From Alphaproteobacteria bacterium (GTDB taxonomy: Bacteria; Pseudomonadota; Alphaproteobacteria; CALMVH01): a stretch of DNA of 64,000 nucleotides. The DNA is taken from assembly GCA_965199335.1 (NCBI GenBank), contig CBDAQZ010000001.1, positions 205,432 to 269,431 of the forward strand. Direction: 5' to 3'. Below the pieces are notes generated by a model, which saw only the letters and a list, made by a program, of their open reading frames with translations, was not told the DNA's origin and made no database searches. Shown here piece after piece: positions 9,056 through 62,094 of the stretch. Both the position numbers and the translations under genes were made by a program. How positions within the stretch are numbered: the stretch's first letter is position 1; each line of letters opens with the position of its first letter.

Positions 9056-9444
9056 CGGGGGTACTCTGGGCAATCGATAGGCGTTGTTCACGGTGCACAT
9101 TTACCCGCAGTCTCTAATATAATCTATAAGGCTTCGTGTACTATACGGTTCAAATGCTGTATCTAGACGCAGTCGTTGCACTTTTGTCATGATAATAAAT
9201 TTCCGGCATCTCATGCGAGAGTCCGAGGGCCTACAGGCTTCTTTAAATAAGCCCGGGAGGCCATAATAAATATTAATCAAAAATACAGAATAAAGGCATG
9301 GGCTTGTCTGCTGTCCGCTATAATGTTATATTTTAACCTATTGTGGTTATATTGCTGTCAGAAACGGGCCATTATTAGCGGGTAAAAATATTGAGTTTCC
9401 AGAGGTACGTCGAAATTCATAAACAAAGTCTGCATATTTTGCGG

Positions 9445-9729: not shown

Positions 9730-9779
9730 TCTCCGACCTATCGGCAAGACCGGATGTTGCTATCAATCAGCTGGACCGC

Positions 9780-17765: not shown

Positions 17766-18823
17766 GGCTGGCCTCCACCGGCGGATTGATTTGCGGATAA
17801 ACGTTTCGCATGCAGCCTTGGTTTCAGTCGCAGCGCAGGATATTCGACCAGTTCCCATGTTGCCCAGGCAAGGAGCGTAGAGACAAGCGCGGATAATGCC
17901 AGTATCTGCGACAGGGGCAGACGTGGATGGAAGAAATGCCACAGCGTCTGCTGCACCGGAAAGGCGTACAGATAGATACCATAGGACAGATCGCCGATCT
18001 GCCACGGCACGCGGAACAGGCGGTCCGATTGCGTGGCGAAGGAAATCGTGATGTACGGGATCGCCACCCACGACCATGCGGTCAGGTAGCGCGAACCGAC
18101 AAGGGCCAGCGTGATCGCCATGATGGCAACGCTGCGCGCCAGCGTGAACTCCAGGCGAGGCCGGAACAGGCAGATCACGACCGAAACCCAGAAATAGGGG
18201 GCGAAGGTCAGCACCTGATGCAGTTCCAGCGGACCCAGCCGCAGCGGCTCGGGATAATGGCGGCCATAATATATCGTGCCTGCACACAGGGCGGTGGCGA
18301 AAACGAATACGCTGGTCGGCGAATTCAGAAGCCGCGTGGTGCCCAGGATCATGAGGGTCAGATACATCAGCATGCCGATCGGCAGCGTCCACAGCGATCC
18401 GTTGACGACGCCCGCCATCGGCGCTGACTCGAATACGCCGGGCAGATAATAATCCGGCAGCAGCGCGATGTTCTGCAGGTAAAGCCACGTATCGTTGCGA
18501 TTGAAATAATCGGTGGGGGCCAGTGTACCGAGCAACGGCCCCAGCGCGACGACCGATAGCGCGCTTACGACGGCCAGGGTAGGGAACACGCGCAGGAAGC
18601 GGCGGATGGCGAAGTGCACTACATGCGGGTCGGATATCCAGCTTTGCGTCACCAGATAACCGCTGAGGCTGAAGAACAACGCGACGCCGATGCCGGTAAA
18701 CGAGAACGAGCCGATGACCGGTTCGGCTTGGCCCGCGATTATGTACATGTGGCCGCCCAGTATCAGGAAGGCCGCTACCAGGCGCACGAAGTTGAAGCAG
18801 TCGGCGTTCTTGGTGTCGGTCAC
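17762..18823 (-). CDS. Membrane acyltransferase family 3 (OafA/YrhL-like O-acetyltransferase)
   Basis: 353 aa with about 10 hydrophobic helices. N-terminal FNFVRLVAAFLILGGH motif. GTG start overlapping the upstream stop (GTGA). Confidence 0.8.
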   Translation of the reverse strand: MTDTKNADCFNFVRLVAAFLILGGHMYIIAGQAEPVIGSFSFTGIGVALFFSLSGYLVTQSWISDPHVVHFAIRRFLRVFPTLAVVSALSVVALGPLLGTLAPTDYFNRNDTWLYLQNIALLPDYYLPGVFESAPMAGVVNGSLWTLPIGMLMYLTLMILGTTRLLNSPTSVFVFATALCAGTIYYGRHYPEPLRLGPLELHQVLTFAPYFWVSVVICLFRPRLEFTLARSVAIMAITLALVGSRYLTAWSWVAIPYITISFATQSDRLFRVPWQIGDLSYGIYLYAFPVQQTLWHFFHPRLPLSQILALSALVSTLLAWATWELVEYPALRLKPRLHAKRLSANQSAGGGQP

Positions 18824-19884: not shown

Positions 19885-20743
19885 CCAGCAGGCTGAGCAG
19901 GTACTGTCCGTAGTTCGTCTTGCTGTATTTCTTGCCGGCCTCGGCCAGTTTTTCCTGCGAAATCCAGCCATTGTCGAACGCGATTTCCTCCGGACAGGCG
20001 ATTTGGGTATTCTGCCGTTCCTGTACCGCGTGCACGAAACTGCCGGCTTCCAGCAGCGAGGCATGGGTGCCGGTATCGAACCAGCAATAACCGCGCCCCA
20101 GCAGCTGCACGGACAATTGCTGCCGTTGCAGGAAGATCGCGTTGACGTCGGTGATCTCAAGCTCGCCGCGTGGCGAAGGCTTCAGGTCGCGCGCGATCTC
20201 GATCACGCTGTTGTCGTAGAAATACAGGCCTGTGACGGCCCATTTCGATTTTGGATTCTTCGGCTTTTCCTCGATGCTGATCGCCTTGCAGTTCGCGTCC
20301 AGCTCCACGATGCCGTAACGCTCCGGGTCGCGGACCTTGTAGGCGAACACGGTCGCGCCTTCGGTACGCTTGCCGGCTGCCGCTAGCTCGTGCGTCAGGC
20401 CGTGGCCGTAGAAGATGTTGTCGCCCAGCACCAGTGCGCAGGGATCGTTGCCGACGAAGTCGCGGCCGATGATGAAAGCCTGCGCCAGCCCGTCGGGCGA
20501 GGGTTGCGCGGCGTAGGACAGGTTGACGCCCCACTGGCTGCCATCGCCCAGCGCGCGTACGAAGCCTTCCTGCTCGTGCGGGGTGGTGATGACCAGTATG
20601 TCCCTGATGCCCGCCAGCATCAGCGTCGTCAGCGGGTAATAGATCATGGGCTTGTCGTAGACCGGCAGCAGCTGCTTGCTGACGCCCAGCGTGATCGGGT
20701 GCAGGCGCGTGCCCGAACCGCCGGCGAGGATGATCCCCTTCAT
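19877..20743 (-). CDS. rmlA: Glucose-1-phosphate thymidylyltransferase
   Basis: [18 protein letters not shown]...[17 protein letters not shown]; 288 aa. Confidence 0.95.
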
Positions 20744-21798
20744 CGCGCGATCCCGACGCGCTTGGTCGCCTCGACGCCGCGGTTCTGGATCGCTTCCCAC
20801 CATTCGCGATTGTCGATGTACCAGGCGACGGTTTTCGCCAGGCCGGTTTCGAAGGTTTCCTGCGGACGCCAGCCCAGCTCGCGTTCGATCTTGCCGGCAT
20901 CGATCGCATAGCGGTGGTCATGCCCCGGACGGTCGGTGACATAGGTGATCAGGCGGTCATGCGGTCCCGCGGGCGAGGGCGCATGCGCGTCCAGCAACTG
21001 GCAGACCCGGGTCACGACCTCCAGGTTGGTGCGTTCGTTCCAGCCGCCGATATTGTAGGACTGGCCGACCACGCCACGCTGCAGCACCAGGCGCAGGGCG
21101 TTCGCGTGGTCCTCGACGTAGAGCCAGTCGCGCACGTTGTCGCCCTTGCCGTAGACCGGCAGGCTTTCCTCGGCCAGGCCGCGGATGATCATCAACGGGA
21201 TCAGCTTTTCCGGGAACATGTACGGCCCGTAATTATTCGAGCAGTTGGTCATCACCACCGGCAGGCCGAAGGTCTCGTGCCAGGCGCGCACCAGATGGTC
21301 GGATCCCGCCTTGCTGGCGGAGTAGGGGGAGTTGGGTGCATAGGCGGTCGTCTCGGTAAAGAAGCCGTCTTTGCCCAGGCTGCCGAACACTTCGTCGGTC
21401 GAGATGTGATGGAAGCGGAAGTCTTTCTTCTGCGTCTCGTCCAGCTTGCGCCAATGGGCCAGCGCGGCCTCCAGCAGCGTGTAGGTGCCGACGATGTTGG
21501 TCTGGATGAACTGCCCCGGACCGTCGATGGAACGGTCGACATGGCTTTCCGCCGCCAGATGCATCACGGCGTCGGGCTTGTGGCGCTCGAACACCTTGTC
21601 CAGCGCCGCGCGGTCGCAGATGTCGACACGCTCGAACTTGTAGCGGGGATTGCCCTCCGCGCCGGGCAACGACGACAGATTGGCCGCGTAGGTCAGCTTG
21701 TCGACATTGACGACATTGCAGTCGGTCTGCGCCAGGAACTGGCGGACGACCGCCGAGCCGATAAATCCGGCGCCGCCGGTCACGAGTACAGTTTTCAT
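20740..21798 (-). CDS. rmlB: dTDP-glucose 4,6-dehydratase
   Basis: [26 protein letters not shown] and [15 protein letters not shown] motifs. ATGA overlap with rmlA. Confidence 0.95.
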
Positions 21799-21806
21799 CG
21801 GATCGC

Positions 21807-22358
21807 CTATTGTAGTTCGGTAATGTCGCGCAACAGGGGCGCTATTCTGTCTTTGTCTGAAAGTGTCGCCTCGGCCTCCGTCACCGGCCATTCGATCCCG
21901 ATAGCGGGATCGTTCCAGCGTACGCTGCGCTCGTGGGTGGGCGAGTAGTAGTTGTCCACCTTGTAGAAAACCTCGGTATCCGGCTGCAGCGTGCAGAAAC
22001 CATGCGCGAAGCCATGGGGGATGATCGCCTGCGTGCCGTTTTCGGCGCTGAGCGTGAACGAGGCATATTTGAGGTAGGTCGGCGAATCCTTGCGCAGATC
22101 GACCGCGACATCCAGTATCGCGCCACGCAGTACGCGCACCAGTTTTGCCTGCGCAAAGGGCGGCAATTGCAGGTGCAGCGCGCGAATCGTGCCCGCCTTG
22201 GCGGAAAACGACTGGTTGTCCTGGATGAAGACCTGGCCGATCCCGGCTTCGCCCCATGTCTTGGCGTTGTAAGTCTCGCTGAAATGGCCGCGATTGTCGC
22301 CGAACCGCCGCGGCGTGATCAGCTTCACTCCGGAAAGTTCGGTGTCTACGATCTGCAA
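21807..22358 (-). CDS. rmlC: dTDP-4-dehydrorhamnose 3,5-epimerase
   Basis: [19 protein letters not shown] and HGFAHGF motifs. I place the start at TTG 22358 (GGAGG, then a 5-nt spacer, then TTG), giving 183 aa. The track start 22415 is probably too long. Confidence 0.88.
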
Positions 22359-22466
22359 AATACCCTCCGCGGCTCGGCTGTGGGATTTGATGGGGCATAC
22401 GGCGCAAAGAATCAAGCCGAAAGCAGACTATGCAAAGCTTGATCCGGCAGCTTATAACGACCCGAC

Positions 22467-23294
22467 ATGACAATTGCTGCAGATACCCCCGCCCAGATCG
22501 CGCGGAAAAAATTTACCAGGCTGGCCCTGTTCGACCTGTGGGACGGGCTGGGTAAATGGCGGCTATGGCTGGCCCTGGGCTGGCAGGATGTCCGTCAACG
22601 TTACCGCCGGTCCATTCTGGGGCCGTTCTGGATTACCGCCAGCCTTGGCGTGTCGATCCTGGCGCTGGGCGTGATCTATTCCAAGTTATTCCACCAGCCG
22701 ATCGAGAAATACGTGCCGATGGTGGCGACGGGCTTCCTGGTCTGGACGACGCTTTCCGCCATGCTGAACGAGGGGTGTTTCGTCTTCATCAGTTCGGTCA
22801 GCACGATCAAGCAACTGCCTTTTCCGCTCAGTACCTATGTTTACCGCGACATGTGGCGGAATTTGATCGTTTTCGGCCATAACCTGATAATCTATCTGAT
22901 CGTGATCGCATTTTTTGCCATCAACCCCGGATGGGACGTATTGCTGGCGATACCGGGGCTGGTTCTGATCGTGCTGAATGGCATCGGCTGGGCGCTGATC
23001 TTCGGGGTTTTCAGTGCCCGGTTTCGCGACGTGCCGCAGCTGGTAACGAACTTTCTGCAGGTCATCTATTTCATCACCCCCCTGCTGTGGCAGCGCAGCA
23101 TGCTCGGCAGTGCGGCGTGGCTGGTCGATTACAATCCCATCGCCTATTTGATCGAAAGCGTACGCGGGCCCCTGCTGGGGAATCCGCCGTCGCTGCACGA
23201 CTGGTTGATCACCATCGCCATCACGATCGTCAATCTTGTGGTTGCGATGGTGGTTTTCGTCCGGTTCCGCTGGCGCATCCCTTACTGGCTCTGA
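22467..23294 (+). CDS. wzm: ABC-2 type polysaccharide export permease
   Basis: 275 aa with six hydrophobic helices. [15 protein letters not shown] motif typical of Wzm/KpsM. Confidence 0.8.
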
Positions 23295-34431: not shown

Positions 34432-35787
34432 ATGAGTGTTAAGAAGAAATTAAAGCAGACGCTCTACTGCTGTACTTGCCTTTCTCTTATTTCAAACGTG
34501 GCGCATGCCGCCGGGTTTCAGCTGAACGAGCAGAGCGCTGCCTCCGTCGGCATGGCGCTTGCCGGTACGGGCGTGGAGCCTGACGCTTCGGTGCAGTTCG
34601 CCAATCCGGCCGGCATCGCCGCGCTTTCGGGGGTCAATCTGCTGGGCGGCGGCAATTTGTACGTCACCAGCGTGAATTTCGACAACAAGGGCTCGAAGTC
34701 GGCGGTCGGCTCACCGATCACGGGCAACGCTTCGGCTGACTCCAATGCTATCAGCGGCTACGGATACGCCACCTATCAGATCAACGACACCGTCACGGCG
34801 GGCCTCGCCTTCTACTCTCCGTTCGGTCTTGCGACACGCTACGGCGACAATTCGTCGGTGCGCTATTTCGCGGAAGATTCGTTCGTGGAGGCGATCGAAA
34901 TCAATCCTAACATCGCCGTCCGCCTGAACGACGAACTGTCGATCGGCGCCGGTCCGGCGATCCGCTATACCTACGGCAAGTTCTCGAACGGCATCGATAC
35001 CGGTTCGATCGGCACGGGCGCGGGCATTGCCGCCGGCCTGTCGCCTGCCGCCGCCGCCGCCCTGGGCGGACCGGGCGCGAACGATTCGCGGTTCAGCGCA
35101 TCCGGCGATGGCTGGGACGTAGGCTACAAGGCCGGCATCCTCTTCCAGCCGGACAAGGAAACCCAGATCGGCCTTGCCTATCATTCCGCCATGGAAAGCA
35201 CGATCAGCGGCACGTCCACGGTCGATACGTCAGGCGCGCAGAGCCCGCTTGCCGCCGCCGCCGCCGGCCGACTGGGAGCGTTGGCTTCCGGGGTAAAGGC
35301 CAAGGTCGATTATCCCGATTCGGTAACCCTCAGCGGGTCGCGTCAGGTCACATCGGACCTGCGGCTGGCCGCCGACGTGTCGTGGACGAACTGGAGTCGC
35401 TTCAAAGAGCTGAACATCCAGTTCGCCGATGGCGCGCCGACCGCAAGCGAAGTCGAAAACTTCACCGACAGCTACCGCTTTGCCCTGGGCGCGGAATACA
35501 ATCTGATGCCCAACCTGAAACTGCGCGGCGGTGCGGCCTATGAAACCAGCCCGGTGGGTGGGGATGCGGCCCGTACGCCCCGCGATCCGGATAGCGATCG
35601 CTTCTGGATTTCCGGCGGTGTCGGGTACGAGTTCATGAAGAACACGACCTTCGACTTCGGCTATTCGCACTTGTTCGCGATCGACGGCGGCACCTTCCGT
35701 TCCAGCACGACGGCAGGAACGTTGATCGGCGATTACGAGAACGACAGCGCCGACATCCTGAGTGTCGACGTAGCGTACAAGTTCTAG
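34432..35787 (+). CDS. Outer-membrane transport protein, FadL/OmpP1/TodX family
   Basis: Signal peptide ending AHA, AGFQLNEQSA start of the mature protein, C-terminal ...VDVAYKF. Confidence 0.85.
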   Translation: MSVKKKLKQTLYCCTCLSLISNVAHAAGFQLNEQSAASVGMALAGTGVEPDASVQFANPAGIAALSGVNLLGGGNLYVTSVNFDNKGSKSAVGSPITGNASADSNAISGYGYATYQINDTVTAGLAFYSPFGLATRYGDNSSVRYFAEDSFVEAIEINPNIAVRLNDELSIGAGPAIRYTYGKFSNGIDTGSIGTGAGIAAGLSPAAAAALGGPGANDSRFSASGDGWDVGYKAGILFQPDKETQIGLAYHSAMESTISGTSTVDTSGAQSPLAAAAAGRLGALASGVKAKVDYPDSVTLSGSRQVTSDLRLAADVSWTNWSRFKELNIQFADGAPTASEVENFTDSYRFALGAEYNLMPNLKLRGGAAYETSPVGGDAARTPRDPDSDRFWISGGVGYEFMKNTTFDFGYSHLFAIDGGTFRSSTTAGTLIGDYENDSADILSVDVAYKF

Positions 35788-41331: not shown

Positions 41332-43053
41332 CTAGATCGGCTGAGGAGGCGACTGATGAGCCTTGAATATAAGTCTTACCTGCGTTCCGGGCGGTCCAGT
41401 AATCGTCAGATCGCCGTCGATCTGGCGGGCAAATGCTTTCGTAAGCGATAATCCAAGCCCGGCAAAAGGCTTTTCGGCACGAAATATGCCGTCTTCCGCA
41501 GATGAAGTGGCCGACTCGATGCCGACACCGTTATCCTCGACCGAGAAACAGGCAAGGCCGTTGTCCATCGCCTTCAGCATGACATGAATCTGCCCGGGCT
41601 GATTTTCCGGAAATGCATGACGCAAGGCGTTCGAGATCGTTTCGGTCATGAAAAGCGCCAGGGGAATCGCGCGATCCGACACATCCCAGACCGGATCGGC
41701 TTCCACGTTCAGCAATACACGCGCCGGCGAAATCCCATAGGCGAGCTGAAGGCTGCTGCACAGCTCGGTCACGAAGGAACCGATATTGACCGATTGAAGG
41801 TCGTCGCTTTCGTACAGATAGCGATGAACCAGCGCCAGGGCACGCATACGTGTCTGGATTTCGGTGAAGGCTTCCTGCGCCGCCGGTACGGCGACGGATT
41901 TGGATTGCAGGTTGATCAGGCTGATCACGATCTGCAGGTTGTTTTTTACGCGATGGTGGATTTCGCGCAGCATCAGTTCGCGGCGCTGGATTGCTTCCTT
42001 CAACTCGCCTTCGCGGCTCGTGATACGGTCTGCCATATCCGCGAAGGTCGTACTCAACTCCTTCAGCTCGCCGCCAGCCGATTTGGCCACGGGCCGAACC
42101 GTCAGATCCCCGCGGCTATAGGAACGTGCCGTACGGATCAGGGATGTAACGGGGGCCGATACCAGCCTGTGACTCAGGAGCCAGATGGTTGTCAGCACCA
42201 CCAGTAAAAGCGCGATCGGTCCCAATATGCTGACGACGAAATTTCCCGGATCGACGTTCAGGAAGAAACGTCGGGGTATGCCGATCAGCACGGTCAGCGC
42301 CCCGTTTTCCAATGTCATCGCCGTATAGGTGCGCGATACCGAATCCTCATGCAGGACGAAGGGCAGGGGGCTGCTGTTCATCACAGGCAGGCTTGCCAGC
42401 TTGGCACGCAGCAGGTCGGGCATGGCATTAGTGCCGGCGATCATCACATTATTATGATCCAGCAGGTAATAGCGCGATCCGGGCGGCAATGGCATGTCGT
42501 GGAAGGAGGCGGCAAACTGATCGGAATCGATGCTCGCAACTGCCATCCCTGCATAATCGCCGTTTTCATCGGCCCAAGGCATCGCACCCACAAGGATCTG
42601 CTTGTGGGATACCCTGCCGATCAACGACTCGCTCAGCGTAAATTGCATCGACTGCTTGGCATGGATGAAATACTCCCGATCGGCGATATTGAGGCCGTCG
42701 GCGCTGCCTGTGCCGCATATCATAGCGCCGTCACGGTCCACGATCGCTATAGTGGAATAGATTTGAAGCCGTGCCAGAACCTTGTTCAGGGTCCGCGAGC
42801 AGGACGGATTGGCGATTTTATAGTCGTTGCTTTCCACCAGGACGCTTAGCAGCTGCTTCAGGTCGTCCAGGGTCTCTTTCTGGTAGCCCGATGCAATCAG
42901 GGCATAATTCTTGGTCGATTCATTCGCGCGTTCCATCTGATCGCGGTTGGCATTCCAGCTGATCACGATCATGGCTATGACGATCGGCAATAGCGGAATT
43001 GTCAGCGCCAAAGTCAATCTGGAACGTATCGAGTAGAAGAAAGGTTTAATCAT
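41332..43053 (-). CDS. Sensor histidine kinase, HisKA_2 type, with periplasmic Cache-like domain and HAMP
   Basis: Start MIKPFFYSIRSRL. Two TM segments flank an about 250-aa periplasmic region. H-box REIHHRVKNNLQIVISLINLQ. C-terminal ATPase (EDNGVGI, GLGLSL). Confidence 0.8.
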   Translation of the reverse strand: MIKPFFYSIRSRLTLALTIPLLPIVIAMIVISWNANRDQMERANESTKNYALIASGYQKETLDDLKQLLSVLVESNDYKIANPSCSRTLNKVLARLQIYSTIAIVDRDGAMICGTGSADGLNIADREYFIHAKQSMQFTLSESLIGRVSHKQILVGAMPWADENGDYAGMAVASIDSDQFAASFHDMPLPPGSRYYLLDHNNVMIAGTNAMPDLLRAKLASLPVMNSSPLPFVLHEDSVSRTYTAMTLENGALTVLIGIPRRFFLNVDPGNFVVSILGPIALLLVVLTTIWLLSHRLVSAPVTSLIRTARSYSRGDLTVRPVAKSAGGELKELSTTFADMADRITSREGELKEAIQRRELMLREIHHRVKNNLQIVISLINLQSKSVAVPAAQEAFTEIQTRMRALALVHRYLYESDDLQSVNIGSFVTELCSSLQLAYGISPARVLLNVEADPVWDVSDRAIPLALFMTETISNALRHAFPENQPGQIHVMLKAMDNGLACFSVEDNGVGIESATSSAEDGIFRAEKPFAGLGLSLTKAFARQIDGDLTITGPPGTQVRLIFKAHQSPPQPI

Positions 43054-43085
43054 TTGGAAACACTTGTCTATCCGGGAAGCAGAAC

Positions 43086-43520
43086 ATGATTCCATTACGT
43101 AATTTCAATTTCGCTGGTCTGGACCAGACGGTAGGTGGAATTGGTGTAGACGCACATCGCAGCAATGTCTTGCTGATTGAGGACGAGGCCGTGATCGCAC
43201 TCGATATGGCAAACGATCTTGAGAGTTGGGCATACAAGGTCATAGGCATTGCACACTCCATGAAGCAGGCACTGGAGGCGGCCGAAAAATGCCGTCCCGA
43301 ACTTGCGATCGTCGACGTGAAGCTGCGTAGTGAGCATGATGGCGTTGAAATTGCCGAAGTTTTGAAATCCAGGTTTAACACTCAGATTGTTTTCCTAACG
43401 GCTCAAAGCGATCGGTCGACAAGGGAACGGATCATGCGGTTAAATCCAATGGGTTTCTTGTTCAAGCCATACTCTTCGCATATGCTGCGTCAGCTGCTTG
43501 AAACGTACGAAGCGGAATAA
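43086..43520 (+). CDS. Single-domain response regulator (CheY-like receiver)
   Basis: VLLIEDE, AIVDVKL (phospho-Asp), VFLTA and FLFKP motifs. Divergent from the kinase, with 32 nt between the starts. Confidence 0.8.
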   Translation: MIPLRNFNFAGLDQTVGGIGVDAHRSNVLLIEDEAVIALDMANDLESWAYKVIGIAHSMKQALEAAEKCRPELAIVDVKLRSEHDGVEIAEVLKSRFNTQIVFLTAQSDRSTRERIMRLNPMGFLFKPYSSHMLRQLLETYEAE

Positions 43521-48987: not shown

Positions 48988-49968
48988 ATGGGAAGTGTTG
49001 CACGTCTTTCGGACCAGTTGAAACTGCGTACTGTATCTGACCAGTCTTCAAACAACCCTTCCAATTCATGGGCCGGCAAGCTTGCCGGACTTAGCGAACT
49101 CGATGTTTCCTATGATGCCAATGACGGTATTCTCTGGAAGCGCATGAAACATGCGGGCCGGGCGAGCGCTTCGATGGAGCTGCTGACCGAAACCCTCGAA
49201 GTGCTTTCCGCTGCAAAGGCCGCTTACGCCGAAGACGTTAAGGCCGACCGCAAATCGATCAAATACATGGTGACGACCTCGATGTTGTCCGGCGTCTTCC
49301 TGCTGGGGGGCGACCTGCCGTTTTTCGCGCAGATGATCGCAAGCAGGGACCGTGCATCGCTGATGCTGTATGCCACCCAGTGCATCAACGTCATCCACGC
49401 TTATGCCAACGGTACGGGTACGCCCGCGCATTCGATCGCTCTGGTCCAGGGCGACGCGCTCGGCGGCGGATTCGAGATCGCGCTGGCCAACGATGTAATC
49501 ATCGCCGAGAAGAGCGCGAAATTCGGCCTGCCCGAGGTTCTGTTCAATCTGTTTCCCGGAATGGGGGCCTATACGCTTCTGGCCCGCAAGCTGGATGTCG
49601 TCCGCGCCGAGCGCATGATCCTCGGCGGCAAGATCTACACCGCCGACGAGATGCACGAGATGGGCCTGGTCGATGTCGTCGCCGAGGACGGCGAGGGCGA
49701 AGTTGCCCTGTATGACTACATCGAGCGTCATAACCGCCTCTATACGTCGCGCCAGTCGGTGATAAAGGCCCGCCAGATCGCCAAGCCGGTTTCGTATGAC
49801 GAGCTCAAGGCGATCGTCGAGGTCTGGGTCGATGCGGCGATGTCGCTGACCCCCGCCGATCTGCGCAAGATGCAGCTGGTCACCAAGGCACAGGATCGCC
49901 GCCTAGGCTTCGCTGCCAAGGCATCCGAGCCTCAGCAGGATGAAGTGATCCAGCAGCTGACTGCCTGA
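48988..49968 (+). CDS. rpfF: RpfF-family DSF synthase (crotonase-fold enoyl-CoA hydratase/thioesterase)
   Basis: 326 aa. HSIALVQGDALGGGFEIALANDVIIAEKSAKFGLPEVLFNLFPGMGAY, VEVWVDAAM and LVTKAQDRR blocks match my recollection of Xanthomonas RpfF. Two Glu are spaced 20 residues apart (E163, E183). Confidence 0.75.
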   Translation: MGSVARLSDQLKLRTVSDQSSNNPSNSWAGKLAGLSELDVSYDANDGILWKRMKHAGRASASMELLTETLEVLSAAKAAYAEDVKADRKSIKYMVTTSMLSGVFLLGGDLPFFAQMIASRDRASLMLYATQCINVIHAYANGTGTPAHSIALVQGDALGGGFEIALANDVIIAEKSAKFGLPEVLFNLFPGMGAYTLLARKLDVVRAERMILGGKIYTADEMHEMGLVDVVAEDGEGEVALYDYIERHNRLYTSRQSVIKARQIAKPVSYDELKAIVEVWVDAAMSLTPADLRKMQLVTKAQDRRLGFAAKASEPQQDEVIQQLTA

Positions 49969-49992
49969 TCTTTTTTTGGATAGCTAAAGAAG

Positions 49993-50022
49993 CGGGCCGG
50001 GTTTTCCGGCCCGTTTTCTTTT
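49993..50022 (+). terminator. Intrinsic terminator after the rpfF-like gene
   Basis: CGGGCCGG-GTTTT-CCGGCCCG followed by TTTTCTTTT, located between the convergent rpfF-like and rpfC-like genes. Confidence 0.7.
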
Positions 50023-50053
50023 GGTGCAAAGTGATAGATTACGTCGTCGCTTA

Positions 50054-52561
50054 TCAGCGTGCCTTCGCCTGCGCCTGCAGGAAACGATCCATGGTGCGCT
50101 GGAAGCGGTTGAACTCGTAACGCAGCCGCGCGGCGTATTCGAAACCGCGCTTGTGGAAGCTGAGCTTGCCCTCGGCGTTGATCTCCATGCAGGCGGTCAG
50201 GATCTGTTTTGCGCCGACATTGGCAGCACTGGAGCGCATCGCGTGGATCTGGTCCCAGAACAGCGACAGATTGCGATCGCGTACGCTGCGATCGATCAGG
50301 TCCAGTAGCTCGACCGTATCCTTTTCGAATTCGTCGATCAGCTCGTTCAGGAAGGACAAGCCGGCATCGAGGCTGGCGAGGCTCTGCAGCGCGTGGCGAT
50401 CGACGATACCCAGCTCGGGCGTGGCGTTGTACCGGGGGTGGCTGGAAATCTCCACCACCGGACCCGGTTCGACGGCCGGCTTCTCGGGGACGGCGACCGG
50501 CGCCGGTTGCGGCGCAAGGATGGCCAGCTGCTGCAGGATATAGGAAGGCTCGCTGGGCTTGGGCAGGAAGAGCGAGACGCCGAGTTCCACGCACTCGGCG
50601 CGGCTTTCCTCCGTTACATCGGCGGAGAAGATCACGATCGGCGGCATCGTCTGGCCCAGCCGCATGACACGATACAGTTTTATGATATCGATGCCGCTGG
50701 TGCCGGGCATGTTGAGGTCCAGCAGCACGATGTCGAATTCCTGTTCCGACAGATAGTCCAGGCCCGCATCGGCGCTGTCGGCAAGGATCACCGAATATCC
50801 GGCCGACCGCAAAATCTTGTTTGTCACCATGCGGTTGACCGGGCTGTCCTCCACCACCAGGACACGCACGCCGTCGGCAAGCATCGACTCATCGGGCTTG
50901 AATGTGGGAACCGCCATCAGTTCCTTATCGCCCTGCAGCGCGCTCAGGACCTCGCGGTGCACAGCCAGGGTACAGCCGATATCGATCGCGTTGCGGATTT
51001 TTTCCGCATCCAGTTCCGGAATGCAGCTGACGATTGCAGGCGCGATATGCCTTATCTCCGGCGCGAGGGCTCCCAGCGCGATTATGGATGCCGGCATCCC
51101 GTGCTGGGCATCGGCGATCTGGCGCGAAATGTCGTCGATGCGATCTATGCCGTGGCGCGTATCGACAAGGGTGACGAGCGCGTTCGTACCGGAAGGGATA
51201 TCCGCGCCGGCGCCGATGATAACCGTGCCAGGCATCATGCGGCACAAGGCAGGCAGCAGCATCTTGTCCGCCGAATGCACCACGATGGCGGCATGCCTGT
51301 CCGCTTTTTCCGCCAAAGGAGGTTCGCGCAGGAACGGCAGCTCGACCGTGAACGTCGATCCTTCGCCGGGCGTGCTGTCGACCGATACGCTGCCATGCAG
51401 CAGGTCGGCCAGCTGGCGCACGATCGCCAGACCCAGCCCGACACCGCCGTATTTGCGCGTCGAGGATGTATTGGCCTGGCCGAACGTTTCGAAAATGCGC
51501 TCCATGTCCTTTGGCGCGATGCCTATGCCGGTATCGGAAATCGCAAAGGAGAGACGAACATCCCCGCCAGTTACCGACAGCGCCTCGACAGTCAGCGATA
51601 CCTGTCCCTTGTCGGTGAACTTGATCGCATTGGTCATGATGTTGAGCAGGATCTGGCGCAAGTGCGGCCAGTCGCCCTGAAGGGACGCCGGGATGGAAGG
51701 CGATATCCTGACCGCGAGATCGAGATTCTTCTGGCCGGCCTGAGGACGCGCAATGGCGACGGTTTCGGCGACGGCCTCGTAAAGGTTGAAGGCCTGTACC
51801 TGCGATTCGATGCGGCCCGCCTGGATGCTGGAAAGATCCAGCACGTCCTCGACCAGGCTGAGCAGTGCACGGCCGGAACCACGTACGGTCTGGACCATCT
51901 CGACCTGTTCGGAGCTGAGGCTCGTCTGCTGCAGCAATTCGCTGAGGCCGATGATCGCGTGCAGCGGCGTACGCAATTCGTGGCTGGCGGTGGCAAGGAA
52001 CCGGCTTTTGGAATGATTGGCCTGCTCGGCGGCGCTTTTCGCGGCCTGAAGCTGGCGGATCAGAGACGCCGCATAAAGCGGAATGGCAATCATCGTCAGA
52101 ACGATGCCGGCCGATATGGGGAACACCGACTGCCAGAAAGGGGACTGTGCGATCACGGCGATGAAACCGACCGTCGAAACGACGGTGGACAATACCAGCG
52201 AGCGGACGCCATAGCGGAAGCCGTTGCCCAGCGAAACCCAGACATAGATCAGGAAAAGGGGCGCCGCTCGTTCGCCTTCCAGCAGCAGGCCGAGGGAGAC
52301 AAAGACGTGTTCGCCTATCATTGCGCTGTAGCGGCGCAGGTAGGAGACGTCGGGCCTGATTATGATCCAGCCCAGCAACAGGATCGAAATGCCGAAATAG
52401 ATGATGCTGAGGATATCGCCCCATTCGGCCAGGCCCGTCTTCGTGCCCAGGTTGCTGTTGAGATACAGCGCGACAAGCGCCGTTATCACCACGCGGATCA
52501 CGGCCTGGACGTGTTCACTGTCTTTGCGGCCCCTGAGCCGGCGTGCGATCAAGGACTTCAT
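50054..52561 (-). CDS. rpfC: RpfC-like hybrid sensor kinase (multi-TM sensor, HisKA, HATPase, degenerate REC, REC, HPt)
   Basis: 835 aa. N-terminal RKDSEHVQAVIRVVI box plus 5-6 TM helices. H-box SHELRTPL (H194). GVGLGLAI. REC with LLDLNMPG (D615) and LPKP. HPt HAMRSSAANVGA (H773). Confidence 0.78.
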   Translation of the reverse strand: MKSLIARRLRGRKDSEHVQAVIRVVITALVALYLNSNLGTKTGLAEWGDILSIIYFGISILLLGWIIIRPDVSYLRRYSAMIGEHVFVSLGLLLEGERAAPLFLIYVWVSLGNGFRYGVRSLVLSTVVSTVGFIAVIAQSPFWQSVFPISAGIVLTMIAIPLYAASLIRQLQAAKSAAEQANHSKSRFLATASHELRTPLHAIIGLSELLQQTSLSSEQVEMVQTVRGSGRALLSLVEDVLDLSSIQAGRIESQVQAFNLYEAVAETVAIARPQAGQKNLDLAVRISPSIPASLQGDWPHLRQILLNIMTNAIKFTDKGQVSLTVEALSVTGGDVRLSFAISDTGIGIAPKDMERIFETFGQANTSSTRKYGGVGLGLAIVRQLADLLHGSVSVDSTPGEGSTFTVELPFLREPPLAEKADRHAAIVVHSADKMLLPALCRMMPGTVIIGAGADIPSGTNALVTLVDTRHGIDRIDDISRQIADAQHGMPASIIALGALAPEIRHIAPAIVSCIPELDAEKIRNAIDIGCTLAVHREVLSALQGDKELMAVPTFKPDESMLADGVRVLVVEDSPVNRMVTNKILRSAGYSVILADSADAGLDYLSEQEFDIVLLDLNMPGTSGIDIIKLYRVMRLGQTMPPIVIFSADVTEESRAECVELGVSLFLPKPSEPSYILQQLAILAPQPAPVAVPEKPAVEPGPVVEISSHPRYNATPELGIVDRHALQSLASLDAGLSFLNELIDEFEKDTVELLDLIDRSVRDRNLSLFWDQIHAMRSSAANVGAKQILTACMEINAEGKLSFHKRGFEYAARLRYEFNRFQRTMDRFLQAQAKAR

Positions 52562-52571
52562 GATATCGGCG

Positions 52572-54179
52572 TCAGGTCGCGACGTTGGCGCAGGGGCGCT
52601 TGTCCTGGTCGATGTCGCGGACCACGCGTTCCTCGGGCAGGGTTATGACGATCGTCGTCCCTTCGTCCGGGTGGCTGTCGATCGACAGCTCGCCGCCATG
52701 AAGCTTGATGAGTTCCACTGATAACGGCAAGCCAAGCCCGGTGCCCGCGTGACTTATCGAGGCGGGACCGATCCGTCCGAAGCGCGAGAAGGCCACTTCG
52801 ATGTCGGCTTCGCTCATGCCGCAGCCCCGGTCGGTGACCTGTATCGAAACTGTACCCTTTTCGCCTATGCCGGCGCTGATGCGGACCTTGCTGCCGCGCG
52901 AGCTGAACTTCAGGGCATTGTCCAGGATATTGACCAGGATCTGGCAGAGCTTTGCACGATCGACCAGTACCGGCGGCAGGTTGGCGGCCAGCTCGTGCGC
53001 AAGCTCGGTTCCGTGGGCGGTCGCGGTTTCCGATACCAGGCGCGAGGCTTCGTGGATCAGGTCGCGCAGATCAACGACGCTTTCACGCAGCAGCATCTTG
53101 CCGGCCTCGATCTGCGCCATGTCCAGTACGTCGGAGATGATCGCCAGCAGATGATGACCGCCGGAGATGATGTAGTTGCAGTACTGCTCGCGGTTCTCTT
53201 GGGAGTCGCTTCCGACGTCCTTTTTCATCATCTCGGCAAAGCCGATCACCGCGTTCAGCGGCGTGCGCAGCTCGTGGCTCATATTGGCGAGGAAGTCGCT
53301 TTTCGCGGCGTTCGCCGCTTCGGCCGCGCGCTTGGCGGCAGACAGCATTTCCTCGGCGGAACGGCGCTGGGTTATGTCGGTCAGCACGGTCAGGACCTCG
53401 GTGCCGTCGGTATGCGGGCCGACGATAGCGGTCTTGCTGACATGCATGTACATGTCGGGGCCATGCGCGGGGCGGAACTTGGTTTCGCTGCGGGTAGGGG
53501 CCTGCTGGTTGCGGACCTCGTCATCGCCGAGCATCATGCGCTCGGCGAAGAAGTTATCGGCGATGACATGACGCAGGGGGCGGTCGATCATCTGCTCGGA
53601 CGTCATGCCGCAGGCGGCGGCGAAGGCCGCATTCGCCAAGGTGATGTCGCCGTTCGCCGTGGTGGTGAAAATGAAATTGGGGTTGCTGTCGACGACACTG
53701 CGCAGGCGTTCCTCGCTGCGCTCCAGCGTTTCGGCATGCTTGGCCGACGACATGTCCAGTTCGGAGGCAAGGCGCGAAGCACGCTGGCGCAGTTCGCGGC
53801 TTTGCCTGTGCAACGACAGAACGTTGCGCACGCGGGTCACGAACTCGCGGTGATCGATCGGGCTCATCAGGAACTCGGTCGCGCCGGCTTCCAGGGCCTC
53901 GTATCTGAATTCGCGATCCTCGTATGCTGTAACCACGATAATGGGGGCATCGAAGTTCGGAATATTGGTGCGGCAATATTGAATGAACTCACCGCCATTC
54001 ATTCCCGGCATCTTGAAGTCCGTAATGATCAGGTCGCACGGATGAGCCTTGAGTCTTTCAATCGCGCCCGACGGGTCGGCAAAACTATGGACCACCGCTT
54101 CAGGTTCAAGCAGCGCGCTTAGACGATGCAAAATATTACGGTTGGTTATCCTGTCGTCGACAATGATGATCTCGGTCAT
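52572..54179 (-). CDS. Response-regulator/histidine-kinase hybrid (N-terminal REC, PAS, HisKA, HATPase)
   Basis: 535 aa. IIIVDD, IITDFKMPGMNG (D54) and IVVTA. PAS (RLRSVVDSNPNFIFTT...). H-box MSHELRTPLNAVIGF. GTGLGLPL. 10 nt upstream of the rpfC-like gene. Confidence 0.85.
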   Translation of the reverse strand: MTEIIIVDDRITNRNILHRLSALLEPEAVVHSFADPSGAIERLKAHPCDLIITDFKMPGMNGGEFIQYCRTNIPNFDAPIIVVTAYEDREFRYEALEAGATEFLMSPIDHREFVTRVRNVLSLHRQSRELRQRASRLASELDMSSAKHAETLERSEERLRSVVDSNPNFIFTTTANGDITLANAAFAAACGMTSEQMIDRPLRHVIADNFFAERMMLGDDEVRNQQAPTRSETKFRPAHGPDMYMHVSKTAIVGPHTDGTEVLTVLTDITQRRSAEEMLSAAKRAAEAANAAKSDFLANMSHELRTPLNAVIGFAEMMKKDVGSDSQENREQYCNYIISGGHHLLAIISDVLDMAQIEAGKMLLRESVVDLRDLIHEASRLVSETATAHGTELAHELAANLPPVLVDRAKLCQILVNILDNALKFSSRGSKVRISAGIGEKGTVSIQVTDRGCGMSEADIEVAFSRFGRIGPASISHAGTGLGLPLSVELIKLHGGELSIDSHPDEGTTIVITLPEERVVRDIDQDKRPCANVAT

Positions 54180-59932: not shown

Positions 59933-60334
59933 ATGAAGCTCGTCCTCGTCGCCGCCGTGGCCCTGATCGATTGCTACGACAAGATACTGCTGGCGCAGCG
60001 TCCGCCTGGCAAGAATTTTGCCGGTCTGTGGGAATTCCCGGGCGGCAAGCTGGAGCCTGACGAAACACCCGAGGCCGCGCTGGTGCGCGAGCTGCACGAG
60101 GAGCTGGGGATCGAGGTCGAGCAGGAGCATCTGCTGCCGCTCATTTTCGCCAGCCATACCTACGGCGATCATCACCTGCTGATGCCGGTCTATTCCTGCC
60201 GGCGCTGGGCCGGTACGCCCCGCGCCCTCGAGGGCCAGACCCTGGCCTGGGTTGAGCCGGCGAAGCTGAACGATTACCCGATGCCGCCGGCGGACGAGCC
60301 TCTGATCGCAGTGCTACGGCAACAACGGCATTAA
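59933..60334 (+). CDS. mutT: NUDIX hydrolase (MutT-like 8-oxo-dGTP diphosphatase)
   Basis: 133 aa. Nudix box [30 protein letters not shown]. Confidence 0.8.
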
Positions 60335-62094
60335 CCGCCCGACACCACGAACACCGCCTCCGCCGCCAGAAGATTGGCGCGGGCGGGCAGGGTGCCGGTG
60401 CTGATCGTGCGTCCCTCGCGGTCGAGGGTCACGGCCTGTTCGACCTTTATATTCAGCGCCGATGTCAGGTCGACGAAGTCCCTGATCGTGAAAGGATGGA
60501 TGACGTTGGACTGCCACCAGCTTTCGCCCGCCCCATAGATCGGGTTGCGGCCATTGAGCAGGATCGAACCGCGCGTGCGCCAATAGGCGAAATTGTCGAA
60601 GGAAACGATGGCTTTGCGCCCGATGCGGATCAACTGTTCCAGAACATGGCGGGGATCCTGCACCGATTGCAGCGTGCGGCTCAGGATGACGTAGTCGAAC
60701 GAACGCTCGGCGAAGTAACGCAGGTCGCGATTGGCGTCGCCGTGGATGACGGATAGCCCCTTGGCAACGGAATCGCTGACCCCGGCGCGGCTGATCTCCA
60801 GCCCCTTGCCGATGACGTTGCGCTTGCTGGTCAGGTATGCCAGCAACGTGCCGTCGCCCGAGCCGACGTCCAGCACCCGGCTGCCGGGCTCGATCAGGTC
60901 CGAGATCAGCCTCAGATCGGGGCGCACATCGGGCTCGACATGGGGCAGGGCGCACCCTTCCAGGAAACGCGCTGCGATATCGTAGAATTCGGGCTCGTCG
61001 AGCAGGAAGGCGTCGTGACCCTTGTCGGTTTCGATCTCGGCGAAGCTGACCTCAGCCCCGGCTTCGTTAAGTGCCACGACCATGGCGCGGGAATCGTCGG
61101 GCGAGAACAGCCAGTCGCTGGAAAAGGCGATGACGCAGAATTTGGCCTTCGCCCCGGCGAACGCACGCGACAGATCGCCGTCATAGGCCGCCGCCAGGTC
61201 GAAATAATCGGTGGCGCGGGTGATATACAGATAAGAATTGGCGTCGAAGCGCTCGACGAAGGTATTGCCCTGGTGGCGCAGATAGCTTTCGACCTGGAAG
61301 TCGGCCTCGAATCCCCATGTGAAGGTGTTGCGGTCCTGCAGGTTGCGGCCGAATTTTCGCTGCAGCGCCTCGCGCGACAGGTAAGTGATGTGGTTCGACA
61401 TCCGCGCGACGGCCAGGCCGGCGCTGGGCCTTTTGTTCAGGCTGGCATACTGGCCTTCCGACCATTCGGGATCGTTCAGCACCGCCTGCCGCCCGACCTC
61501 GTTGAAGGCGATGTTCTGGGCGGTGTAGCGCGCCGCGGTGGCGATCAGCAGCACCGCGCCCATGCTGTCCGGATAGGAGGCTGCCCATTGCATCGCCTGC
61601 ATGCCGCCGATCGAGCCGCCGACGATGGCGAACAGCCTTTCGATACCCAGATGGTCGATCAGCAGCTTCTGGGCCCGCACCATATCGCCGATGGTGATGA
61701 CCGGGAAATCCAGCGCGTAGGGCTTTCCTGTCTCGGGGTTGGCTTCCGAAGGGCCGGTGCTGCCCATGCAGCCGCCCAGTATGTTCGAGCAGATGACGAA
61801 ATATTTGTCGGTATCGACTGGCTTGCCCGGCCCGATCATGGTCGGCCACCAGCCCGGGCGGCCGGTAATCGGGTTTTCTCCAAGGCAGAACTGGTCGCCG
61901 GTCAGCGCGTGGCAGATCAGAATCGCGTTCGATCGCTGGGCGTTCAGGGTTCCGAAGGTCTCGTAGGCGATATTGATCGGGCCGATACTACCGCCATTGT
62001 CCAGCGGCATCTTCACCGTTTCAGCCAGTACGGCGCGTCTGCCCGGGAAGGTGTCGCCGGCCATCTGCGCGGAATATGTGGAAGCAACGCTCAT
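60331..62094 (-). CDS. metXW: Fused homoserine O-acetyltransferase MetX and methionine biosynthesis protein MetW
   Basis: Single 587-aa ORF. MetX part ([30 protein letters not shown]) runs without a stop into a MetW part ([31 protein letters not shown] ... IHPFTIRDF). Confidence 0.85.

Follow-up and report, generated by a model that had tools for sequence, protein, structure and literature searches.

Phosphotransfer from RpfC to RpfG is established in Xanthomonas (PMC4504480), and five membrane-proximal residues of Xanthomonas campestris (Xcc) RpfC, namely R15, D17, S18, E19, and Q22, are essential for sensing of DSF (PMC5391125). A phosphate acceptor that is itself part of a second kinase also has a precedent in the kinase CheA3, which phosphorylates another hybrid histidine kinase, CheS3, on its receiver domain (PMC3868531). 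The locus described here lies in a stretch of 64,000 nucleotides that was analysed as a whole, referred to as the window. The named sequences most closely related to its AlaRS, at ~65% identity, come from Azospirillaceae, Inquilinus, and Arenibaculum, which supports the alphaproteobacterial origin proposed in an earlier note on this DNA. The host is an uncultured alphaproteobacterium. That note knew of no DSF system wired as this one appears to be, and in the literature we likewise found no paper describing a combination of rpfF, an RpfC-like gene, and a REC-PAS-kinase. Alphaproteobacterial RpfF homologues already carry the label “DSF synthase” from automatic annotation; what is new is the wiring of the DSF module, not the presence of rpfF in Alphaproteobacteria.

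The locus consists of three open reading frames, at 48988-49968 on the plus strand and at 50054-52561 and 52572-54179 on the minus strand, encoding a crotonase, an RpfC-like hybrid sensor kinase, and a second kinase, K, respectively. The minus-strand pair is separated by an intergenic gap of 10 nt, read from the sequence, and the crotonase gene converges with this operon across a gap of 85 bp. A terminator scan, together with the sequence, places a GC-rich hairpin in the convergent gap (49993-50013, both strands) that is likely to be a bidirectional intrinsic terminator, as its stem gives terminator-like sites on both strands, with a T-run following on the plus strand and five T in eight positions after the minus-strand stem. 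Both the operon structure and its resemblance to the xanthomonad arrangement of rpfF versus rpfG(H)C, with rpfF convergent, the distal gene RpfC-like and the other gene in the rpfG slot, had been recognized in the earlier note and are visible in the sequence.

The plus-strand gene (48988-49968) encodes an RpfF-family crotonase of 326 aa, a putative DSF-family signal synthase on the strength of Pfam, NCBIfam, and PDB matches. The crotonase fold is recognized by Pfam ECH_1 (79.3 bits) and ECH_2 (38.8 bits), and the protein clears the 177-bit cut-off of the NCBIfam model PRK08788 at 341.5 bits. The same model also collects B. cenocepacia RpfF (399 bits) and an Xcc RpfF fragment (360 bits). The protein falls short of the xanthomonad-type RpfF equivalog NF053515 (218 bits, cut-off 550). 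This is a narrow model, since the characterised RpfF of B. cenocepacia likewise fails it with 185 bits, and the combination of NF053515 failed and PRK08788 passed therefore assigns the crotonase to the wider RpfF family rather than to the xanthomonad-type orthologues. Its best PDB matches are RpfF proteins at 168-192 bits (7zq7 191.5, Xcc RpfF 182, and B. cenocepacia RpfF 168-169 bits), while the score drops to 62 bits for the next crotonase, AUH/methylglutaconyl-CoA hydratase, and to 46 bits for DspI (5wyb); identity is 45% to the Xcc RpfF core and 40% to that of B. cenocepacia RpfF. The sequence blocks that had been singled out as the core of a DSF synthase align to Xcc RpfF (3m6m), as do the two glutamates noted to lie 20 residues apart, E163 (codon 49474-49476, plus strand) and E183 (49534-49536, plus strand). 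Identified by translation, these correspond to the glutamates within GGGFE and LPEV in 3m6m and are invariant in an alignment of 49 family sequences. Their partners are positions 157 and 177 of the 305-residue 3m6m chain, presumably E141 and E161 provided that the chain includes a tag of 16 residues, as the native length of 289 aa would imply. When DSF synthases are set against ordinary hydratases, the crotonase falls in the RpfF clade and not with the housekeeping hydratases. We conclude that the gene encodes an RpfF-family synthase, for which signal production is predicted.

The distal gene of the operon (50054-52561, minus strand) encodes a hybrid sensor kinase of 835 aa, identified as RpfC-like through Pfam, PDB, and N-terminal domain matches; it adjoins and converges with rpfF, as is the case in most related loci with enough sequence. 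HisKA, HATPase_c, and Response_reg all score above the Pfam cut-offs. The HisKA-HATPase core (51317-52045, minus strand) contains the phospho-histidine H194 (51980-51982), located by Pfam and translation, and the receiver (50486-50881, minus strand) has D615 (50717-50719) and the canonical K668-P, with the RpfC REC 3m6m_D as its best REC-only PDB match (87.7 bits). The C-terminal HPt (50057-50416, minus strand) gives a Pfam score of 20.3 bits, under the cut-off of 24.6, and is further identified by the motif HxxRSSAxxxGA (HAMRSSAANVGA) at H773 (50243-50245); the HPt domains of RpfC-like homologues reach Pfam significance. The input domain (residues 1-170; 52052-52561, minus strand), a region covered by no Pfam or NCBIfam model, comprises a short N-terminal sensor and then a putative 5-6 hydrophobic helices, where an RpfC-type sensor has five transmembrane helices, residues 16-171 holding four strong and one or two weaker hydrophobic segments as judged by Kyte-Doolittle hydropathy only. 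Matches of 59-96 bits connect the N-terminal domain to the RpfC-like proteins encoded in canonical rpfF/rpfC/REC-HD-GYP loci. Its sensor motif, read from the translation as R12-K-D-S-E-H-V-Q19 (52505-52528, minus strand), supplies R12, D14, S15, E16, and Q19, which are identical to the essential residues of Xcc RpfC and have identical spacing (RxDSExxQ); among the RpfC-like proteins of related loci the motif occurs in strict form in 13 of 34, and in a loose form in 6 more. With the kinase domains, receiver, HPt motif, and essential Xanthomonas sensor residues all present, the RpfC-like identity claimed for this protein holds; DSF sensing is predicted.

The rpfG position, across the 10-nt gap upstream of the RpfC-like gene, is occupied by K, a protein of 535 aa (52572-54179, minus strand) in which Pfam finds the REC-PAS-HisKA-HATPase architecture that had been reported for it. 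Pfam gives no match to an HD or HD-GYP domain in K, which is therefore not an RpfG. The receiver (residues 1-125; 53805-54179, minus strand) contains the phospho-acceptor D54 (54018-54020), which like D8, D9, and T84 is conserved among 102 family members. At position 106 all 102 members have Ser or Thr (Ser106 in K) and the canonical Lys is absent, so that the phosphorylation switch may be atypical. The PAS domain (residues 151-278; 53346-53729, minus strand), identified by Pfam PAS and PAS_4, is the least conserved domain in the same set, with 30% mean identity, and has no sequence match at E<=1 to solved PAS domains described as DSF-binding. By contrast, the residues H302 (53274-53276) and N421 and the DxGxG and GxGxG motifs of the Pfam-defined HisKA-HATPase core (52620-53333, minus strand; N, G1, and G2 boxes intact) are invariant in the 102 members. 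Identification of K as an RpfR (PAS-GGDEF-EAL) was considered and rejected, as there is no GGDEF or EAL in the window and the PAS has no match to a solved DSF-binding PAS. Unfiltered phmmer searches and motif scans detected no HD-GYP, GGDEF, or EAL open reading frame in the 64-kb window, nor was an AMP-binding (rpfB-type) signature found there, in line with the absences listed in the earlier note. This absence applies to the 64-kb window, and the rest of the genome could encode an RpfG with HD-GYP or an RpfR.

The ancestry of the K receiver links it to the partners of RpfC. In neighbour-joining trees built from short alignments, it falls, in 184 of 200 bootstraps (92%), into one clade with receivers from the partners of rpfC-like genes, both REC-HD-GYP and REC-PAS-GGDEF-EAL; the REC-HD-GYP proteins compared come from other rpfF/rpfC loci and do not include Xcc RpfG itself. 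Unrelated receivers are 23-25% identical to it, compared with about 44% (38-49%) for the REC-HD-GYP partners and 51% for those with GGDEF-EAL. Receivers of the REC-PAS-GGDEF-EAL variant are interspersed with those of the histidine kinase type, and K and the Telmatospirillum REC-PAS-GGDEF-EAL protein are collinear, with 39% identity over 279 aa, as far as the junction with the output domains. The RpfF tree places the loci with a K-type kinase together, with one GGDEF-EAL-type locus as their neighbour and the HD-GYP types at a distance. On the basis of sequence, K has kept a conserved RpfG-type receiver and exchanged its output domain, and homology of the two receivers directly supports the proposal of phosphotransfer from the RpfC-like kinase.

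The triad of rpfF, RpfC-like gene, and K was found in 12 loci whose flanks are unrelated, and all six K homologues that were chosen blind to their neighbours were found within a triad; relatives have kept the three genes together. Full-length homologues of K form more than 100 clusters (40-76% identity), some with the automatic label PleC, and the linkage of crotonase and RpfC-like gene is kept in dozens of loci with unrelated flanks. There is also a sister variant of the triad with REC-PAS-GGDEF-EAL in place of K. With open reading frames in the compared loci called naively, the surroundings of the triad (about 7-10 kb) showed no response regulator gene in any of the 12 loci. The triad is not peculiar to one genome but a variant at the family level that is widespread among Rhodospirillales-like Alphaproteobacteria.

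We consider it reasonably probable that these three genes constitute a self-contained DSF-type cell-cell signalling module whose output has been rewired to a kinase-to-kinase cascade. By analogy and homology with the RpfF proteins of Xanthomonas and Burkholderia, the crotonase would use E163 and E183 to make a cis-2-enoic fatty acid from 3-hydroxyacyl-ACP through dehydration and thioester cleavage. The domain order and conserved sensor residues of the RpfC-like kinase suggest that its short sensor and transmembrane input domain would sense this fatty-acid signal, with autophosphorylation of H194 followed by relay to D615 and then to H773 of the HPt. The phosphorylated HPt would in turn phosphorylate D54 of the K receiver, a step suggested by the homology of this receiver to the RpfG type and by the same operon position. 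Phosphorylation of the receiver, possibly together with a cue perceived by the PAS domain, may then switch the kinase or phosphatase activity of the K core at H302, which would control at least one response regulator whose gene lies elsewhere, unlinked to the triad. With a kinase core in the rpfG slot, the c-di-GMP output (HD-GYP or GGDEF-EAL) would be replaced by a second tier of phosphorylation.

Other readings of the locus have to be weighed against this cascade. That K might be a phosphate sink or modulator instead of a signal-carrying output, with the true regulator (an unlinked REC-HD-GYP or DNA-binding protein) elsewhere, is in our view unlikely. The K receiver could drain or compete for phosphate from the HPt of the RpfC-like kinase, or the K core could act mainly as a phosphatase, and the replacement of the canonical Lys by Ser or Thr across the family would fit such a role, as would the lack of a partner regulator linked to the triad in the examined loci. 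The sequence in view is a 64-kb window, leaving a remaining genome that could encode the regulator, and the Xanthomonas literature indicates that further regulators interact with RpfC (PMC4504480). However, all 102 members keep H302 and every ATP-binding box unchanged, features that would be superfluous in a mere sink; the usual sinks are single-domain receivers; and both the position of K and its type of receiver are those of RpfG, an established output protein. A role for the crotonase as an ordinary metabolic enzyme of fatty acids or CoA esters, adjacent to two kinases by coincidence, is hardly credible. It would account for Pfam matching generic ECH only and for the missed RpfF equivalog cut-off, but more than 100 bits separate the RpfF proteins from all other PDB crotonases, the linkage to the RpfC-like gene persists among unrelated flanks in dozens of loci, and the adjacent genes include none for beta-oxidation.

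The presence of two complete kinase cores in one operon, and of a variable PAS domain in K that could bind a separate ligand, raises the idea of parallel or converging kinases, in which K would sense a PAS cue of its own and feed the REC or HPt of the RpfC-like kinase, or the two would be independent members of a multikinase network. We regard this as improbable, as the N-terminal receiver of K belongs to a clade that accepts phosphate from RpfC-type HPt domains, such a receiver is the input module in the documented CheA3/CheS3 case, and the three interchangeable outputs found on the same REC(-PAS) module argue for flow into K. We also give little credence to binding of the fatty-acid signal by the PAS domain of K, which would make K a second, cytoplasmic DSF receptor whose activity the membrane sensor would gate as well; this would be a refinement compatible with the main cascade model. 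The PAS domains of RpfS (PAS_4-kinase) and RpfR do bind DSF-family signals (PMC4504480) and K matches both Pfam PAS and PAS_4, but no solved DSF-binding PAS was matched at E<=1 in a comparison that did not contain the RpfS sequence, and conservation within K is lowest in the PAS (30% identity). If the kinase-to-kinase cascade is retained, it can be extended to a far more speculative reading, which we hold to be decidedly improbable, in which a quorum signal would enter a two-tier kinase cascade with no change in c-di-GMP. K would then be a coincidence detector, combining the population signal arriving via the RpfC-like relay with an intracellular cue via its PAS domain, and would feed the PleC/DivJ-type regulators of development or the cell cycle in Alphaproteobacteria, as the PleC label on some K homologues might suggest. 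Were this true, quorum sensing would directly gate differentiation, for example cyst or stalk formation, across a large group of free-living Rhodospirillales-like Alphaproteobacteria.

Among known systems, RpfF/RpfC/RpfG of X. campestris shares with the triad the synthase family, both catalytic glutamates, the sensor architecture, and RxDSExxQ, and its rpf locus has the same convergence of rpfF with a two-gene operon in which rpfC is distal. The likeness extends to RpfG in that the receiver of K falls in the clade of REC-HD-GYP partners, drawn from other loci, but K has a PAS-HisKA-HATPase in place of the HD-GYP c-di-GMP phosphodiesterase, and its receiver has Ser for the canonical Lys. Unlike the Xanthomonas locus, the triad has no nearby rpfB, and its host is a Rhodospirillales-like alphaproteobacterium and not a xanthomonad. 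Telmatospirillum siberiense, in which a REC-PAS-GGDEF-EAL gene lies by rpfF/rpfC (locus L005), has the same synthase and sensor and a collinear REC-linker-PAS, whereas its output is a c-di-GMP cyclase/phosphodiesterase module and not a kinase core. The synthase of the Burkholderia and Cronobacter RpfF-RpfR systems is also of the RpfF family, but RpfR is a soluble PAS-GGDEF-EAL receptor for BDSF with no receiver domain, and there is no RpfC-type kinase.

Output through something other than a c-di-GMP enzyme is seen with PA1396/PA1397 of Pseudomonas aeruginosa, which likewise has an RpfC-like membrane sensor of DSF-family signals (PMC4504480). PA1396, compared here by description, differs in having no HPt and relying on an orphan HPt protein that leads to a DNA-binding regulator, and the system has neither a cognate synthase nor a second kinase. 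Xanthomonas RpfS, also compared by description, is like K a soluble PAS-histidine kinase in a DSF pathway, presumably acting via its own response regulator; in contrast to K it has no N-terminal receiver, is not encoded with rpfC, and binds DSF directly. The domain order of CheS3 is REC-PAS-kinase, and the likeness of CheS3 to K is one of shared domain types, the architecture of K being an N-terminal REC, a PAS, and a complete kinase core with invariant phospho-sites. In Rhodospirillum centenum, a member of the Rhodospirillales, to which the host of the triad is also likened, the CheA3 to CheS3 to CheY3 pathway runs from a hybrid kinase to the receiver of a second kinase and on to a separate regulator (PMC3868531), as is proposed for the triad, with the difference that its input is a chemotaxis-like receptor complex and not a fatty-acid sensor.

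The signalling locus consists of three open reading frames, all of which are present as the earlier note described them. A gene for a 326-aa crotonase-fold protein (48988-49968, plus strand) converges, across an 85-bp gap, on a minus-strand pair encoding an 835-aa RpfC-like hybrid sensor kinase (50054-52561) and a 535-aa REC-PAS-HisKA-HATPase kinase, here called K (52572-54179). The proposed two-gene operon with a 10-nt gap holds, the K and RpfC-like frames being separated by TGA, 10 nt and ATG. The pair is preceded on the same strand by aroK and aroB, and the convergent gap contains a GC-rich hairpin (49993-50013) that our scan found to be terminator-like on both strands. The alanyl-tRNA synthetase of the window is at most 76% identical to proteins from MAGs, and its best named relatives, at about 65% identity, come from Azospirillaceae MAGs, Inquilinus, Arenibaculum, Aerophototrophica and Acetobacteraceae, identifying the host as an uncultured Rhodospirillales-like alphaproteobacterium.

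The crotonase belongs to the RpfF family, the synthases of the cis-2-unsaturated fatty-acid quorum signal DSF, even if Pfam recognizes only the generic ECH_1 and ECH_2 domains in it. Across all PDB structures its top four matches are RpfF proteins: 7zq7 (191.5 bits), X. campestris (Xcc) RpfF 3m6m (182 bits), 6dgn (169 bits) and 5fus (168 bits), the last being RpfF from B. cenocepacia (PMC6361424). The next-best non-RpfF crotonase structure reaches 62 bits and P. aeruginosa DspI (5wyb) just 46 bits, and this separation upholds the earlier assignment to the RpfF type rather than to housekeeping hydratases. In Xcc RpfF the glutamates of the GGGFE and LPEV segments, at chain positions 157 and 177 of 3m6m, are the counterparts of E163 and E183; they would be E141 and E161 if, as the native length suggests, the 305-residue chain has a 16-residue tag. 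Neither E163 nor E183 varies in an alignment of 49 sequences. In NCBIfam the protein passes PRK08788 (341 bits, cut-off 177), a model on which a fragment of Xcc RpfF scores 360 bits and the characterized B. cenocepacia RpfF 399 bits, and which is also passed by RpfF homologues of each locus type tested. The RpfF equivalog NF053515 is not passed (218 bits against a cut-off of 550); since the characterized B. cenocepacia RpfF scores only 185 bits on this model, the failure means “not a xanthomonad orthologue” and not “no DSF synthase”. Over the core, the protein is 45% identical to the Xcc enzyme and 40% identical to that of B. cenocepacia. The family numbers at least 7,994 proteins at E<=1e-20, many of them automatically labeled “DSF synthase” by JGI, and a search of genome contigs with the crotonase as sole query gave one distant locus, in a Ghiorsea MAG, at 41% identity.

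The distal kinase has the sensor residues and architecture of the RpfC type. Its HisKA, HATPase_c and Response_reg domains exceed the Pfam cut-offs, and the C-terminal Hpt, at 20.3 bits, lies slightly under the cut-off of 24.6. In Xcc RpfC the binding site for DSF is an N-terminal sensor of 22 residues, of which the membrane-proximal R15, D17, S18, E19 and Q22 are essential for DSF sensing (Cai et al., PMC5391125). The RpfC-like kinase carries R12, D14, S15, E16 and Q19 (RKDSEHVQ) at the same spacing, followed by four strong and one or two weaker hydrophobic segments that reach residue 171. Among 34 RpfC-like proteins from related loci, 13 have the sensor motif in its strict form and a further 6 have a looser version. 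The kinase of the window also has the phospho-sites H194, D615 (with a canonical K668-P) and H773 (HAMRSSAANVGA), and the best receiver-only PDB match of the REC domain is the RpfC receiver of the RpfF-RpfC complex 3m6m (87.7 bits). NCBIfam and Pfam have no model for the RpfC input domain, RpfG or RpfC; sensor residues, domain order and phospho-sites bear out the claim that this protein is RpfC-like, with the Hpt sub-threshold in Pfam.

K, in which Pfam finds Response_reg, PAS, HisKA and HATPase_c, does occupy the rpfG position, directly upstream of the RpfC-like gene and without an HD-GYP domain. We surveyed 80 metagenomic loci encoding RpfF homologues, together with the loci around named homologues, by scanning naive ORFs with domain pieces of the window proteins; the naive ORFs around L010 and L075, mostly spurious high-GC frames, were left out. 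In nearly every case the RpfC-like gene is immediately preceded, on its own strand, by a gene that starts with a receiver, matching that of K at 86-232 bits. What follows the receiver differs: ten loci encode REC-HD-GYP partners, the canonical RpfG architecture, four encode REC-PAS-GGDEF-EAL partners, Telmatospirillum siberiense among them, and the window plus five loci, including those of Roseiterribacter gracilis and a Fodinicurvata species, encode REC-PAS-HisKA-HATPase partners. In five or six of the surveyed loci the RpfC-like gene lacks a linked receiver protein, and other loci carry an RpfR-like GGDEF-EAL protein without RpfC. Six RpfF/RpfC-like pairs (L030, L034, L036, L039, L055 and L068) lack an upstream receiver protein in the 1.3-7 kb of sequence available; in all of these except L036 the RpfC-like protein has no match to the window HPt query, which recalls sensors of the PA1396 type.

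The K receiver is related to those of the RpfG-type (REC-HD-GYP) proteins encoded in that position at other loci, and the receiver tree supports a shared origin. Partner receivers form a single clade, apart from RpfC receivers and other same-locus receivers, in 184 of 200 bootstraps. The mean identity of the K receiver is 63% to receivers of the kinase type; it falls to 51% for those of the GGDEF-EAL type, to 44% for those of the HD-GYP type, and to only 23-25% for unrelated receivers. Kinase-type and GGDEF-EAL receivers are interleaved in the tree and form a joint clade in 135 of 200 bootstraps, monophyly of all kinase-type receivers being recovered in just 3 of 200. K and the REC-PAS-GGDEF-EAL protein of Telmatospirillum are likewise collinear, with 39% identity and 2 gaps over 279 residues, in an alignment that spans the receiver, the linker and the entire PAS domain and ends at the output junction. 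In the RpfF tree the kinase-type loci fall together, beside the Telmatospirillum GGDEF-EAL locus and away from the HD-GYP types, with the remaining GGDEF-EAL loci scattered. The simplest reading of these sequence relationships is that in K the output domain has been exchanged while the input module cognate to RpfC was conserved, and synthase, sensor and receiver appear to be inherited together.

The receivers of the K family bear what reads as an atypical signature. Where the canonical Lys of the K-P motif is expected, at position 106, 99 of 102 members have Ser and 3 have Thr; in K itself the replacement is Ser106 (53862-53864, minus strand), and the equivalent residue in surveyed partners is Ser in the GGDEF-EAL type and Arg or Lys in the HD-GYP type. 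Two other readings of K were considered and not adopted. That its PAS is of an RpfR-like, fatty-acid-binding kind finds no support in sequence, since the domain gave only generic, weak PAS matches in a PDB search, and specific membership of the PleC/DivJ family, JGI having labeled some homologues PleC, is disfavored by DivJ and PdhS scores that lie far below the cut-offs and also under those of the generic BarA and TorS models of NCBIfam. Further arrangements occur at individual surveyed loci. The partner at L020 (11088-12098, minus strand) is REC-PAS alone, about 270 aa from its likely true start and without an output domain, and may be truncated or a stand-alone adaptor. L023 (12244-13392, minus strand) and L026 (8242-9213, minus strand) each encode an RpfC-type transmembrane input fused straight to GGDEF, possibly a one-component DSF-to-c-di-GMP sensor; the former lies between the rpfC-like and REC-HD-GYP genes, and the latter directly upstream of the rpfC-like gene, where the contig stops.

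The three genes are co-inherited, and the phospho-sites are conserved. K has more than 100 full-length clusters of homologues (40-76% identity, about 97% coverage), with named sources including Inquilinaceae, Rhodovibrionaceae, Kiloniellales, Dongiaceae, Stellaceae, Roseiterribacter and Fodinicurvata. Six clusters were sampled on contig size alone, blind to their neighbors, and in all six the K gene is immediately followed by a HisKA-HATPase-REC-HPt gene, on which a crotonase gene converges. Together with the earlier loci this gives 12 triads, so that the check for co-conservation in relatives called for in the earlier note comes out positive. The flanks of the triads are mutually unrelated, save for aroK-aroB-xerD, which the window has in common with L001, its 61%-identical relative, and the synthase, sensor and K genes thus behave as one module. 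For several further RpfF and K homologues the longest contigs are of identical length, which suggests additional co-occurrences. Across 102 K-family members there is little or no variation at the acidic receiver residues D8, D9 and D54, at T84 (Ser in six), at the kinase H302 or in the N, G1 and G2 boxes, and selection appears to maintain both a receiver that can be phosphorylated and an active kinase core; mean identity is highest in the receiver (57%) and lowest in the PAS domain (30%). Between its rpfF and rpfC-like genes L001 has an additional 201-aa ORF (11060-11665, plus strand) with no Pfam match, absent in the window, and R. gracilis (L002) encodes, besides its triad, a second RpfC-like hybrid kinase of 782 aa (7488-9836, minus strand), divergent from rpfF.

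As the earlier note had it, the 64-kb window contains no HD-GYP, GGDEF or EAL domain by unfiltered phmmer on all ORFs with locus-derived queries and by motif scans, and no AMP-binding (rpfB-type) signature; of ten large window ORFs inspected, none encodes a fatty-acyl-CoA ligase. Response regulator genes are absent from the roughly 7-10 kb around each of the 12 triads. Besides the receivers of the triad the window encodes just one, a single-domain protein (43086-43520, plus strand), divergent from a 587-aa membrane sensor kinase (41332-43095, minus strand) whose H-box, HHRVKNNLQ, is of the HWE/HisKA_2 type; this pair sits in a stretch with a GC content of 0.54-0.55, against about 0.61 elsewhere. 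A FadL/TodX-family outer-membrane channel for hydrophobic compounds (34432-35787, plus strand; Pfam Toluene_X, 300 bits) is encoded at a distance of 13 kb from the signalling locus, and a part in passage of the fatty-acid signal is conceivable. Three minus-strand frames are of unusual composition: 60331-62094 joins alpha/beta-hydrolase (MetX-like) and MetW domains in 587 aa, which suggests that MetX and MetW are fused or that the ORF was called too long, and 16902-18488 (528 aa) and 20740-22473 (577 aa) have RmlD-type and dTDP-glucose-dehydratase-type domains, respectively, in their C-terminal halves only, and their N-terminal 225-240 residues could be fusions or mis-called starts.

In the circuit that we propose from computational evidence, the crotonase would make a cis-2 fatty acid that activates the RpfC-like kinase, H773~P of which would phosphorylate D54 of K and so switch the kinase or phosphatase activity of K towards an unlinked regulator. 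Phosphorylation of D54 would be the counterpart of the RpfC-to-RpfG phosphotransfer step in Xanthomonas (PMC4504480). For a kinase that phosphorylates the receiver of a second kinase there is precedent in the Che3 system of R. centenum, where CheA3 phosphorylates a receiver domain within CheS3, a hybrid response regulator-histidine kinase, and CheY3 is phosphorylated by CheS3~P only (PMC3868531).

The synthase-sensor pair can be regarded as a portable module, its cognate receiver fused to HD-GYP, GGDEF-EAL or a histidine kinase, and many families of environmental Alphaproteobacteria have conserved the version with the kinase. To our knowledge DSF signalling has been characterized almost only in gamma- and betaproteobacterial pathogens, and we know of no family with the kinase version that has been studied for fatty-acid signalling. 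In those pathogens the defining DSF output is c-di-GMP turnover, through RpfG or RpfR. If confirmed, the system would widen the range of DSF-type communication to include a major group of soil and aquatic bacteria, define a kinase-to-kinase cascade, and provide a case of natural output-domain swapping on a fixed phosphorelay interface, of use in specificity studies and engineering. Metagenomic censuses that take rpfG as “the” DSF receptor partner will overlook kinase-type systems.

Reviewed routes of DSF perception run from RpfC to RpfG (HD-GYP), through RpfS (PAS_4-kinase) or RpfR (PAS-GGDEF-EAL), from BCAM0227 to BCAM0228, and from PA1396 to PA1397; unlike the circuit proposed here, none has an RpfC-type relay into the receiver of a second histidine kinase (PMC4504480). 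Full-text searches that paired RpfF or RpfC with the Alphaproteobacteria or families within it found no such wiring described either, the sole pertinent paper found being a metagenomic census that tallies rpfF, rpfC and rpfG genes, and, in line with the earlier note, we are aware of no characterized DSF system wired in this way. The synthase, sensor and receiver are thus of known families, and the output would be new, in a lineage where we know of no characterized system of such type. The system is not categorically new, because non-c-di-GMP DSF outputs and kinase-to-kinase cascades are both precedented.
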